The notes under the pieces are model-generated. The model did no database searches. It saw nothing but the letters and a program-made list of their open reading frames with translations, and had not been told where the DNA came from. From Chthoniobacterales bacterium (GTDB taxonomy: Bacteria > Verrucomicrobiota > Verrucomicrobiia > Chthoniobacterales > UBA10450), in NCBI GenBank assembly GCA_038258815.1, contig JBBSPM010000014.1, forward strand, positions 20,263 to 84,262: a DNA stretch of 64,000 nt, given 5' to 3'. A program made the position numbers and the translations under genes. This document shows positions 1,741 through 32,152 of the stretch, in pieces (the first letter of the stretch is position 1; each line of letters starts with the position of its first letter).

Positions 1741-1837
1741 AACCGCGGATTACGCGGATTTTTGAATCTCTTCATCCGCGCCATCCGCGCCATCCGCGCC
1801 ATCCGCGCCATCCGCGCCATCCGCGTAATCTGCGGTT
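1741..1837. repeat. 9-bp tandem repeat (CATCCGCGC x6, 1773-1826) bracketed by a 19-bp inverted repeat
   Basis: Arms are AACCGCGGATTACGCGGAT (1741-1759) and ATCCGCGTAATCTGCGGTT (1819-1837), with 1 mismatch. The repeat unit is itself the inverted core of the arm. Lies in the divergent intergenic region. Confidence 0.9.
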
Positions 1838-1901: not shown

Positions 1902-3152
1902 ATGAATATTCACGAATACCAAGCGAAAGAATTGCTCCAGAAATTTGGAGTGGCGACCCCTGCCGGGAAGGCGGTTCGAACCGCCGATGAAGCGGAAGCT
2001 GCCGCTCGTGAACTCGGCACGGAGGATTTGGTAATCAAGGCGCAAGTGCACGCGGGCGGACGCGGCAAGGGAACTTTTACGAACGGTTTCAAGGGCGGCG
2101 TGCATCTTTGCAAATCGCCGGCGGAGGCGCGCGAGATCGCGTCGAAGATGCTGGGGCAGACGCTGGTCACGCATCAAACCGGAGCCGCCGGACGGGTGGT
2201 GAATACGGTGCTGGTGGCGAAGTCGGTTGAGATCGAGCGCGAGATTTATTTCGCCATCCTGATGGATCGCGCGACGGGCGGGCCAATGATCGTGGCGAGC
2301 ACGGAAGGCGGAGTGGAGATCGAGGCGGTGGCGGAAAAATCGCCGGAGAAGATTTTGCGTGAGCCAGTGGATCGGCTGGCGGGATTGCAACCTTATCAGG
2401 CGCGGAAATTGGCCAAGCAGCTCGGGTTTACCTCCGCGCAGATCAAGCCGGCGGCGAAGTTGTTCGATGGGTTGTATCGCACTTTTCTGGCGCTCGATTG
2501 CTCGATGGTGGAAGTGAACCCGCTCGTCGTGACACGTGGAGGGACGCCCGCCGTGGCGTCCACTGAATCAGGGACGGGACAGCGCCCGTCCCTCCAGGAG
2601 CAAGGCGAAGTCCTGGCGCTGGACGCGAAGTTCAATTTCGACGACAACGCGCTTTATCGGCATCCGGAAGTCGCCGCGATGCGCGACACGGCAGAGGAAG
2701 ATCCACGCGAAGTGGAGGCCTCGAAATCCGGTCTGAACTACATCGGGCTCGATGGCAACATCGCCTGTCTCGTGAACGGCGCCGGTCTCGCGATGGCGAC
2801 GATGGACATCATTAAATTCTACGGTGGCAGTCCGGCGAACTTTCTCGATGTGGGCGGCGGCGCGACGGAGGAACAGGTGACGCAAGCCTTCAAGCTGCTC
2901 GTCTCGGATGAGAACGTGAAAGCGATCCTGGTAAACATTTTCGGCGGCATCATGAAGTGCGACGTGATCGCGCAAGGCATCGTGAATGCGGTCAAAGCCG
3001 TGCAGCTTCCCGTTCCACTGATCGTTAGGCTGGAAGGGACGAACGTGGATGCGGGCAAGAAAATCATCGCGGACTCGGGCTTACCCGTCACGACGGCCGA
3101 CGATCTCGGCGATGCCGCGCAAAAAGCGGTGAAGGCTGCGGAGGGGAAATGA
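1902..3152 (+). CDS. sucC: succinyl-CoA synthetase beta subunit
   Basis: [17 protein letters not shown]..., ATP-grasp and ligase-CoA regions, GGIMKCD. ATG 1902 is preferred over the ORF-track start at 1854. Carries an extra loop of about 20 aa (see the repeat at 2538). Confidence 0.97.
2538..2595. repeat. 58-nt compound palindrome embedded in frame in sucC
   Basis: GGAGGGACGCCcgccgtGGCGTCCactgaatcaGGGACGGGacagcgCCCGTCCCTCC: two stem-loops plus outer GGAGGGA/TCCCTCC arms. Confidence 0.7.
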
Positions 3153-3876: not shown

Positions 3877-4758
3877 ATGGCTGTCCTCGTTGATAAGAAC
3901 ACGCGCCTGCTGGTGCAGGGTCTGACCGGAAAAACCGGCGGCTTCCATGCGAAGCAATGTATGGAGTACGGCACCAATGTGGTCGCAGGCGTGACGCCCG
4001 GCCGCGGTGGCGAGACTTTTGAAGGCAAGGTGCCGGTGTTCGACACGGTGGCCGAAGCGCGCAAGGAGACCGGCTGCGACGTGTCGGTTATTTTCGTGCC
4101 GGCAGCGGGTGCGGGGGATGCAATTCTTGAAGCGGTGGACGCTGGCGTGGAACTGGTCATTTGCATCACGGAAGGAATTCCGGTGATGGATATGATGCGG
4201 GTGAAGGCGCAGATGACTGGCAGGAAGAGCCGGCTCATCGGTCCCAATTGCCCGGGGATTATCACGCCGGGGCAATGCAAGATCGGCATCATGCCGGGCT
4301 ACATTCATAAGCCCGGCAACGTCGGCGTGATCTCGCGCTCGGGCACTTTGACCTATGAAGCGGTCTGGCAATTGACCTCGCGCGGCCACGGCCAATCCAC
4401 TTGCATCGGCATTGGCGGGGATCCGATTAATGGCATGTCACATCTCGATGCGGTGAAGCTTTTCAACGACGACCCCGAGACGCACGCGATGATTTTGATC
4501 GGCGAAATCGGTGGCAGCGCGGAAGAAGAAGCCGCGGAGTGGATTAAGGAAAATTGTAAGAAGCCGGTGGCGGCATTCATCGCGGGAGCGACGGCGCCTC
4601 CCGGCCGCCGGATGGGCCACGCGGGCGCGATCGTCTCCGGAGGGAAGGGGACGGCGGCGGGAAAGATCGAAGCACTGCAGGCAGCGGGCATCGCGGTAGC
4701 GGAAACGCCGGCCACGATGGCTGATACGTTGCTTCAACGGATGAAAGAGCGAGGGTAA
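3877..4758 (+). CDS. sucD: succinyl-CoA synthetase alpha subunit
   Basis: [24 protein letters not shown], phosphohistidine loop [14 protein letters not shown]. Confidence 0.97.
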
Positions 4759-15750: not shown

Positions 15751-16512
15751 CTACTCTTCTGGCGTTCCTTTCAGCGCCTCGTCCACGGCCGATGGAAAAA
15801 TGCTGGTGACCTCGCCCTCTAATCGCAGCGTGACGCACTCGACGTGATCGTGCTCGGTCTTGCCGCGATTGATGATGAGATACGGCGCTCCGCGTTCCGC
15901 CGCGAGGAGTGGAAACGACGCCGCTGGGTAAACGGAAAGGGTGGAGCCGAGCGCGATCACGAGATCGGCTCGCATCGCGGCGTGAGTGGCGCGTCCGAGT
16001 TCCTTCGGATCAAGCGTTTGCCCGAAACTGATCGTGGCCGGTTTTAGGAAACCGCCGCATCCGCAGAGAGGCGGTCGTCGGTGCTGCCGGAAGAACTCGA
16101 AATGCGGCTCGGGATCGGTGCGTTCATGGCAGCTCTGGCATTCGATCAGCGCATTGGTGCCATGAATTTCGACCAGCAATTCTTCGCTGGTGCCGGCGAG
16201 ACGATGGAGGCCATCGATGTTTTGCGTGAGCACGGCGGTAACTTTTCCGGCGCGCTCCAGCCTAACGATTGCATCGTGGACGGCGTTTGGCCGGGCCTCG
16301 CGGAAGGCGTCGTGTCCTTCCAGTTTATAATCCCAATGCTCCAGCCGGGCCGCTTCCGAGGTCATGAAATCCTGGAAGTAAACTGGCTGTCGCTTCTTCC
16401 AGACACCGTTCGGTCCCCGGAAATCTGGGATGCCGCTGCCAGTGGAAATGCCCGCGCCAGTGAAGATGAGCGCGCGTTGCGAAGCGCGCAGGTAGTCGGC
16501 AAGATCAGGCAT
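15751..16512 (-). CDS. cobB: NAD-dependent protein deacylase (sirtuin)
   Basis: GAGISTGSGIPDFRGPNGVW, QNIDGLH, zinc ribbon CQSC...CGCGG. ATG 16512; the upstream 210 codons of the ORF-track entry overlap the CPBP gene. Confidence 0.9.
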   Translation of the reverse strand: MPDLADYLRASQRALIFTGAGISTGSGIPDFRGPNGVWKKRQPVYFQDFMTSEAARLEHWDYKLEGHDAFREARPNAVHDAIVRLERAGKVTAVLTQNIDGLHRLAGTSEELLVEIHGTNALIECQSCHERTDPEPHFEFFRQHRRPPLCGCGGFLKPATISFGQTLDPKELGRATHAAMRADLVIALGSTLSVYPAASFPLLAAERGAPYLIINRGKTEHDHVECVTLRLEGEVTSIFPSAVDEALKGTPEE

Positions 16513-16526
16513 TCCCGGACGACATT

Positions 16527-17189
16527 TTATGAGAACAGCTTCGGCAGAATGTTGGCGACAAAGTCGACCAGAAAATGGCCGACCATGTTCGAGACCAGAT
16601 CGCGCCGCCAGAGATAAAACAAGGCCAGGATGCCGCCGAGCACGAGAGCAATGAGGATGTTCGCCCAGCCGCCAGTCCAGTGCCCGACACCAAAAATAAC
16701 GAGCGGCACGGCAGCCGCCAGCCAGCCGGGCAAGCCGAGCGCCTGCAAGCGCTCCATCGCGTAGCCGCGGTAACAAATTTCTTCGACTACACCCGCACGC
16801 GTCACGATCAGACTCAGGAGCCACAGCGGAAGTCGATCGAGTGTCTTTCCGTTCTCGCCACCGTTGTATCCGGTCAGCGTGACCAGAACTCCCGCCACGA
16901 GCAGGCAGATCACGGCGGTGACAAGACCCCACCAGATCGAACGCCACCAACGCGCGGCGCCCAGCCCGATCGAGCGGAGTGGCAAACCTTCGCAGCGCAC
17001 GATGAAGAGGATGGCGGCAGCGACCAGCCACATCCCGGCTTCCCGCGCCAAGACCGCGGGCATGCTCGTAGCCGACCAAAAGCTGAGGACCAGTCGTCGC
17101 ACCAGCAGCATCCCGAAAAGCGAGAGGAACAAGCCGAACCACGTTGCCGCGGAACGCTTGAAAGGAGGATTATCAGCACTCGTTGCCAT
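16527..17189 (-). CDS. CPBP family intramembrane glutamic endopeptidase
   Basis: EEICYRGY, FGVGHW and GHFLVD motifs; multi-TM. Confidence 0.85.
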   Translation of the reverse strand: MATSADNPPFKRSAATWFGLFLSLFGMLLVRRLVLSFWSATSMPAVLAREAGMWLVAAAILFIVRCEGLPLRSIGLGAARWWRSIWWGLVTAVICLLVAGVLVTLTGYNGGENGKTLDRLPLWLLSLIVTRAGVVEEICYRGYAMERLQALGLPGWLAAAVPLVIFGVGHWTGGWANILIALVLGGILALFYLWRRDLVSNMVGHFLVDFVANILPKLFS

Positions 17190-31588: not shown

Positions 31589-32152
31589 TTAGGCGGCGCG
31601 TTGGTGCTCAAGCTGAGCGGTGAAACTGCCGGCCGCCTTGAGCGAGGCGCTATGTCGGGCGAGTTCCATTTCGAAGGCCGGGCCGGGCGGACATTCGGGA
31701 CACCAGTGACGGCTGGTGCTGGCCAGTCGTTGCCGGAAACTGCAGTTGGGACAGAGGAATATTTCGGTTCTTGTGGTGCGCGGCCTCAAATTTTCTCTCC
31801 TGGCTGGGCGGTGTGGTCCCGCAGGCTGCCCATGGGGTGCGAGGTGTCGAGTTGGCCGAAGTTTACCCTCCATTTTTCCAGGATAGTGGAGGAGCGTGTG
31901 GGCGGCGAGGATGCGAGAGGTGGGAAGGGCAGGGGCGCGGCGGCGAGAAAGACACGACCGGCTTGGGTGATGCGATCGATGATGGTGAAGGAATTCTTCG
32001 TGCTGTCGCGCGGGGTGGCTTCGAGGAAGCCTGCGTTCGACATGAGCTGCACTTGTTTTTCGGCAGTAGGCGCCGCGGATTTCGAGCGCCGGGTGCGGTG
32101 TGCCATCCGTCCGAAGCAACAATCCGCGGGCGTAAGTCAGATTAATATTCAT
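31589..32152 (-). pseudogene. decayed gene of unknown function with C-terminal CxxC-x13-CxxC zinc ribbon
   Basis: The GC3-rich reading frame switches twice. It starts in frame A (MNINLTYARGLLLRTDGTPHPALEIRGAY). It moves to frame B (..MSNAGFLEATPRDSTKNSFTIIDRITQAGRVFLAAAP..TSHPMGSLRDHTAQPGEKI*). It returns to frame A (..EIFLCPNCSFRQRLASTSRHWCPEC..). Confidence 0.3.

Follow-up and report, generated by a model that had tools for sequence, protein, structure and literature searches.

A REPIN-like palindromic repeat lying in frame within the sucC gene of a Chthoniobacterales genome

How did a palindromic DNA element come to lie in the middle of sucC, a gene of central metabolism, and what becomes of the protein that is read through it? 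The question is raised by a 64,000-nucleotide stretch of DNA (hereafter the window) from the genome G000, a MAG composed of 196 contigs with 94.6% completeness, 5.1% contamination and a G+C content of 60%.

The sucC gene and its palindrome

The sucC gene is located on the plus strand of the window at 1902..3152, with its ATG at 1902 and its stop codon ending at 3152; in the list of open reading frames it comprises 416 codons plus stop, and it encodes the beta subunit of ADP-forming succinate-CoA ligase. Its identity was indicated by two Pfam domains (ATP-grasp_2 at residues 2-210 and Ligase_CoA at residues 290-410), by full-length matches to SCS beta chains in the PDB (E values 1e-131 to 1e-116), by the fold described below, and by sucD, which is found in the same operon at 3877-4758. 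It is the single sucC match in G000, and both flanks of the insert described here are contiguous on one 85.7-kb contig.

The initial annotation had reported a 58-nt palindrome at 2538-2595, and we found it there as described, with its outer arms and two small hairpins. The 58-mer is real, but it omits a terminal T and A, and the conserved element is 60 nt long (2537..2596). Through the inverted-repeat search, it was recognised as a REPIN-like inverted doublet of REP units with the ends TGGAGGGAC...GTCCCTCCA, which are shared by 26 doublets in the genome. Its two arms are 25 nt each, 80% complementary and 10 nt apart, and the whole sequence reads TGGAGGGACGCCCGCCGTGGCGTCC-ACTGAATCAG-GGACGGGACAGCGCCCGTCCCTCCA. 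The left unit, TGGAGGGACGCCCGCCGTGGCGTCC (2537..2561, plus strand), is composed of the tail TGGAG (2537-2541) and a 7-bp stem (2542-2548/2555-2561) closing the 6-nt loop CGCCGT (2549-2554). A 10-nt spacer, ACTGAATCAG (2562..2571), contains a TGA in another frame and is followed by the right unit in inverted orientation (2572..2596, minus strand), with its stem at 2572-2578/2585-2591, its loop at 2579-2584 and its tail at 2592-2596. Each arm thus holds a perfect small hairpin, that of the left arm with the 7-bp stem given above and that of the right arm with a stem extending to 9 bp (2570-2578/2585-2593). Since the right unit is a GGG/CCC stem variant, the doublet in sucC is a heterodimer. The 96-nt stretch around the element folds with -47.8 kcal/mol (z = -2.8), and only one of 200 shuffled sequences was as stable. 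Neither a terminator-like nor a promoter-like site was found at its position.

Eight other units in the genome match the left arm exactly, and two other copies match the right arm, which points to a recent insertion in sucC. The DNA that is missing in relatives amounts to a net 63 nt, or 21 codons (R212-Q232; 2535..2597, plus strand), and is open in the sucC frame without any stop codon. The in-frame insertion was therefore rightly called, though its extent had been put at about 20 codons and equated with the palindrome; the 63 nt consist of the 60-nt element and three junction bases (CG...G) that the element does not account for. The residues EQ beside the insert are native, and correspond to D/N-Q/K in relatives.

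It had also been supposed that the element is one of the repeats littering the window. This was not the case, as the family has only one copy within the 64 kb: no further copy was detected in the window at up to three mismatches, either with the whole element or with either half. Upstream of sucC (window 1743-1836), a 9-nt unit, CATCCGCGC, is repeated in about 5.5 tandem copies at about 1773-1825. Inverted copies of CCGCGGATTACGCGGA / TCCGCGTAATCTGCGG stand on either side of this array, and the copy on the left scores as a terminator-like hairpin.

Empty sites in related genomes

We searched 40 related genomes for sucC and found the gene in 37. Close relatives have a sucC that lacks 63 nt, or one whose match breaks in two at residues 213/233. 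In the DNA alignment with eight genomes of the same genus, a single 63-nt gap was found with conserved sucC sequence on both sides, and one of these eight genomes encodes a SucC that is 97% identical. At the insertion site the relatives read VVT-(D/N)(Q/K)GEV. The alignment of orthologues thus agrees with the expectation that relatives lack the loop, the eight genomes of the genus differing from G000 by exactly 63 nt.

The same was found at greater distance. Among the 120 best homologues in a collection of 5.8 billion proteins, the insert is present only in the window's own protein, and the nearest homologue, 95% identical outside the gap, is without it. The alignment with human SUCLA2 (6g4q_B) shows a gap of 21 residues at the same place, and none of the solved SucC structures contains an insert there. 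The insertion in sucC was seen in one assembly only, the G000 MAG. Two other SucC proteins from soil metagenomes, P0099 and P0120, contain a different insert of eight residues (PSTSLRTG and PSTALRTG) between residues 41 and 42, in the ATP-grasp domain, which may derive from another repeat family.

Position of the insert in the SucC structure

An AlphaFold model of SucC was built with an alignment of 38 sequences. Its mean pLDDT was 89.1, and only residues 215-233 fall below 50. Compared with the solved SCS beta chains, the model gave TM scores of 0.85-0.88 (normalised to the target). In the model, the insert is located between the strand 202-211 and the strands 237-239 and 242-245, at the tip of a beta-hairpin in the ATP-grasp domain. 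It lies 6 and 9 residues from N206 and D241, which are on the two strands of the hairpin and are invariant in the 38 orthologues. These residues we take to correspond to Asn199 and Asp213 of E. coli, which bind Mg2+-nucleotide; a literature search on E. coli Asn199/Asp213 as Mg2+ ligands returned nothing.

The model thus predicts that the fold of SucC is kept and that the insert alone is disordered. The surface loop proposed at first sight fits this mapping, in which the insert is peripheral, sits at the hairpin tip and is the sole segment of low confidence. We might attribute the tolerance of the insert to its being in frame, free of stops in that frame and placed at a surface turn.

The repeat family in the genome

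When the whole genome was searched with the sucC element, 33 matches were obtained, from which pattern searches resolved 26 doublets on 23 contigs. The predicted further copies therefore exist: 25 beyond the one in sucC, two of which flank a RAYT gene. The 26 doublets are 58-105 nt long, all start with TGGAGGGAC and end with GTCCCTCCA, and have spacers of 8-55 nt, so that the palindrome in sucC is not a product of chance. Only the two 25-nt arms are conserved across the family. Each arm is one unit composed of a 5-nt tail and a 7-bp stem with a 6-nt loop, and 52 of 57 units are arranged in inverted doublets.

The stem is well supported by pairing and covariation. Over 20 distinct units, 99.3% of the cells of the stem are paired, which was reached by none of 500 shuffles, and controls in which the stem was slid gave 33-55%. 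The pairs 11:20 and 12:19 show GC/AU/CG and CG/GC. Most doublets join two different stem variants; the long hairpin is thereby weaker and the two short ones are favoured.

The family therefore displays several features of REPs and REPINs, namely a short covarying stem-loop, dispersed inverted doublets, and members flanking a RAYT gene. It departs from them in location, because at least 11 of the 26 copies are within conserved coding sequence and not extragenic. The tetranucleotides GTAG and CGTC are absent from the unit end; the unit starts with TGGAG, and a G before TGG occurs in only 9 of 52 family units. Inspection of the sucC junctions and of the sequence flanking all 26 copies revealed neither a target-site duplication nor a conserved target, and the four bases outside the element ends are not conserved. 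Of the features of a MITE, the family thus shows terminal inverted repeats, but no target-site duplication was found among the 26 copies.

The arms are free of stops in all six frames, and so are 16 of the 26 copies over their whole length, which is in part a by-product of the G+C content; some copies contain stops in frames other than that of their host. Of 24 other genomes in the genus, 10 contain members of the family (1-9 matches per genome), and members also occur in one further genus of the order; among the genomes searched the family is most numerous in G000. This genome is rich in repeats in general. About 100 families of 18-mers occur at least eight times, many of them palindromic hairpins, and abundant palindromes include CGGCCCGAGGGCGGGCCG (97 copies) and CGGCGGTCATAGACCGCC (53 copies).

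The cognate RAYT

The genome contains 23 Y1_Tnp matches, of which only one is flanked by family units (within 700 nt). This RAYT gene is at 16028-16423 of contig C62 (minus strand of locus L142, about 1526-1975), between the doublets at 15947-16026 and 16481-16585. Its frame is broken near the N-terminus by one internal TGA or frameshift, with ...PVIVFL read in one frame and TVCTKDRKPIL...MPDHVHLF...YVLQNPVRAGL in another. The break could be that of a pseudogene or a consensus error of the MAG. In a related genome, G001, the counterpart at the same locus beside icd (isocitrate dehydrogenase) is an intact ORF of 191 aa, 67% identical and likewise flanked by doublets. Both are matched by the NCBIfam model NF047646 'REP-associated tyrosine transposase' (cut-off 80 bits), the ORF of G001 with 96.7 bits and the copy of G000 with 86.2.

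Given one family-flanked RAYT and its intact, flanked counterpart, we consider the family a REPIN with a cognate RAYT, and propose that it may be mobilised by this enzyme; as the copy in G000 looks frameshifted, current mobility in this genome is doubtful. Close counterparts of the RAYT (at least 58% identity) were found in G001, G000 and G032 only, and the genomes G016, G019 and G023 have copies of the repeat without one. The presence of RAYT and REPIN is patchy and the assemblies are incomplete, so nothing firm follows from this distribution.

Other host genes of the family

Around each copy, the longest frame that crosses the element without a stop was compared with Pfam. Within conserved genes, one frame continues through the element in at least ten other copies; in all of these but NuoJ, Pfam domains lie on both sides of the element or span it. 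In MetH the element is in the linker from the homocysteine to the pterin domain, in MutL in the linker ahead of the C-terminal domain, and in phosphoglucomutase (PGM) between domains I and II. It lies inside the class II core of LysS, in the AAA lid of RarA/MgsA, in the Mur ligase middle domain of a MurC-MurB fusion, inside the domain of an FAD-dependent oxidoreductase, and inside DUF1730 of QueG. In UvrA (a frame of 1979 aa) it comes right after the Walker A motif, and in NuoJ it encodes the C-terminal tail. A beta-lactamase-like protein is a probable further host. The copies near dxr and moaC are upstream of the gene or at its N-terminus.

Compared with five relatives, lysS and rarA showed clean empty sites, and the net gain was 15 residues in queG and 13 residues in murC-murB. 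In MetH, UvrA and PGM the element stands in place of a loop or linker that is native and variable. Replacement of native loop residues, and not simple addition, was found in PGM, UvrA, QueG and MurC-MurB, which is unlike plain cut-and-paste transposition. For PGM, we rejected an old, decayed insertion common to the genus, because a loop of equal length is present in orthologues throughout the order; this loop is native, and the element displaced about 16 native codons in G000. The host frame is kept in every case, with a net change divisible by three, even though the element lengths themselves are not.

How often the family falls inside genes was estimated by a rough proxy, in which a site counts when an open frame of 300 or more codons runs across it and extends for 40 or more codons to either side. 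By this proxy, 50-57% of the sites of the sucC-element family are spanned, against 60% of random 60-nt windows, 0-30% for most other abundant repeat families of G000, and 39% and 58% for two others, which suggests that the family is little depleted from genes. By the same rough measure, copies of the families CAAGTTGGAAACTTGCGC and GGCGTTTTCCAAAACGCC frequently lie within long open frames as well.

Several of the host loci have features of their own. Locus L143 has a copy in lysS (C17:30866-30959) and a second one (31591-31685) 50 nt beyond the stop codon of lysS; each is the reverse complement of the other, and this extends to the spacers of 44-45 nt. This inverted pair brackets the last third of lysS and may reflect a local duplication or a potential substrate for inversion. 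The 1979-codon UvrA frame (C36:35834-41770, L054) encodes UvrA in doubled form, as does Oter_2709 of Opitutus terrae (1995 aa), and MurC and MurB are fused in a frame of 911 codons (C38:13587-16319, L055); both arrangements are also found in relatives. At the metH site in G019 (L166) and the uvrA site in G023 (L187), where G000 carries a REP doublet, there are unrelated inserts of about 30-37 residues, so that these protein sites seem to be hit repeatedly by different elements.

The host genes also bear on whether the insert in sucC could be an artefact, such as a mis-join through the repeat, or else a rare variant of sucC in the population. The fragmentation of the MAG into 196 contigs, its 5.1% contamination, and the lack of the insert in every other public protein (among the 120 best homologues) would fit such an origin. 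Against it, the flanks form a contiguous sucC on an 85.7-kb contig, and a mis-join seldom yields an exact frame together with complete element ends. Moreover, family members in frame were found in lysS, mutL and ftsK of independent MAGs: in G023, a shorter copy occupies the same site of lysS and a second one lies in the linker of mutL, and in G001 a copy is found inside ftsK. Since these genomes were assembled separately, the behaviour of the family is not an artefact of one assembly, and we consider an artefact at sucC very improbable.

Origin and fate of the insert

The original proposal that a palindromic element landed in frame in sucC is upheld by the empty sites, the 25 other copies and the open frame; relatives lack the loop and the element has other copies in the genome, both of which support an insertion. 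The explanation that in our judgement is very probably right is that a REPIN was copied into sucC and is read through as a passenger loop of 21 residues. A non-autonomous REPIN of one RAYT (HUH/Y1) family would have been copied into the gene after the lineage split from its closest sequenced relatives, adding 63 nt at the tip of a beta-hairpin without a stop in the sucC frame. The ribosome would read through it and produce a SucC with an extra surface loop, rich in Gly/Thr/Pro/Ser and probably disordered. Most likely this loop would have no function and would be tolerated as a passenger, neutral or slightly harmful. Other conserved genes may have been hit in the same way, with selection leaving only those copies that are in frame in loops, linkers and tails. 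As the frame is kept across about 11 independent host genes, we infer that the loop is translated; it would then be disordered, and SucC would presumably retain its activity.

Could the insert instead be useful to the cell? In an adaptive gain, the peptide, or the hairpin in RNA or DNA, would have been recruited for regulation, as a binding or modification site, or as a translational pause between the ATP-grasp subdomains. It is true that the only sucC of the genome carries the insert and that it lies between two invariant residues of the active-site region. The reading frames of the intragenic copies are also uneven: in 12 such copies the left arm is read as GGTxAVxS in eight, as EGRxPS in three and as the Arg/Trp-rich WRDxRRR in one, a slight hint of selection on the peptide. 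This bias, however, would arise just as well if copies in the Arg/Trp-rich frame were purged. Among close relatives, only this one genome has the insert, the same repeat is present in about a dozen unrelated proteins, and the loop is predicted to be disordered. Its arms are identical to those of other copies, which shows it to be young and without sign of host-specific change. An adaptive role thus appears to have little probability. Least probable is that the insert is missing from the mature protein by ribosome bypass, by RNA processing or because this sucC allele is inactive: the mRNA hairpin is very stable (-47.8 kcal/mol), and translational bypass of GC-rich mobile inserts occurs in yeast mitochondria and in phage T4 gene 60, but skipped inserts need neither frame nor freedom from stops and yet about 11 hosts keep both, other frames of some copies do contain stops, neither a take-off/landing codon pair nor intron-like features were seen, and the remainder of sucC is fully conserved.

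A wider idea is that this family, and perhaps several others in the REP-rich genomes of Chthoniobacterales, have become adapted to living inside genes. The arms, free of stops in every frame, encode small peptides rich in Gly/Pro/Ser/Thr; by the rough proxy, long open frames span the copies nearly as often as random positions, and a native loop is replaced at several sites. We regard such adaptation as unlikely; if true, these repeats would keep supplying core enzymes with new or exchanged surface loops, and would enter genes by a route other than simple transposition.

Comparison with known systems

Neither the insertion in sucC nor the family reveals a new kind of system, and palindromic repeats in frame inside genes are already in print, for Rickettsia (RPEs) and for Opitutus terrae (PMC3733652). 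What sucC offers is a clean and datable case of selfish palindromic DNA in the gene of a central-metabolism enzyme, in an uncultured soil lineage, where the repeat family, its cognate transposase and about a dozen host genes can be compared side by side. It is a natural experiment on where conserved enzymes tolerate 20-30 extra residues and on how REP doublets enter genes.

A close precedent is that of Di Nocera et al. (2013), who described intragenic REPs in several species, the verrucomicrobium Opitutus terrae having the highest number, with more than 70 cases (PMC3733652). Those REPs are tagged by GTAG or CGTC, are mostly inverted dimers, and when intragenic the dimers encode 20-30 residues; an end variant GTGG was reported for one REP family (PMC3733652). 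Hosts in Opitutus terrae include both uvrA genes (one encoding a UvrA of 1995 aa), dxr, a subunit of NADH dehydrogenase and FAD-binding proteins; repair genes are in excess among the intragenic cases, and REPs also flank RAYT genes (PMC3733652). Among the hosts of intragenic REPs listed in that paper, sucC, lysS, metH and mutL do not appear (PMC3733652). The family reported here resembles these REPs in its hairpin units, inverted dimers, intragenic copies and flanking of a RAYT, and in the UvrA host, 1979 aa here and 1995 aa in Opitutus terrae. It differs in lacking the GTAG/CGTC tag, in its host order, Chthoniobacterales, and in the sequence of the unit and of the encoded peptides, which are GGTxAVxS/EGRAPSRP/DATAGVPP here, whereas the REPs of that paper give GTGVPPV, VAGVADPG and VGPALAAG.

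The RPEs of Rickettsia (Ogata et al. 2000) are presented in PMC10969869 and PMC3733652 as selfish palindromes found in frame in many unrelated housekeeping genes. By the account in PMC10969869, ORFs contain close to half of the copies, and the inserts are regarded as compatible with the folding of the protein; RPE-1 has a length of about 150 bp, encodes a conserved peptide of about 45-50 residues, is described there as having no known transposase, and belongs to obligate intracellular alphaproteobacteria. Like the RPEs, the present family is in frame in unrelated genes and is missing from orthologues (sucC, lysS, rarA, queG, murC-murB). Going by the description in that account, it is set apart from them by its length of 58-105 nt, its variable spacer, its cognate RAYT and its occurrence in a free-living soil lineage.

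REPINs and RAYTs are known from Pseudomonas fluorescens and E. coli (Bertels and Rainey 2011, PMC3337134; Nunvar et al. 2010, PMC2817692). With classical REPINs the family shares the arrangement of two inverted REPs with a spacer, a flanked single-copy RAYT and covarying stem variants. Classical REPINs, however, occur in hundreds of copies and nearly always outside genes, whereas the present family comprises 26 copies, of which about half are intragenic, and has a RAYT that looks frameshifted in this genome.
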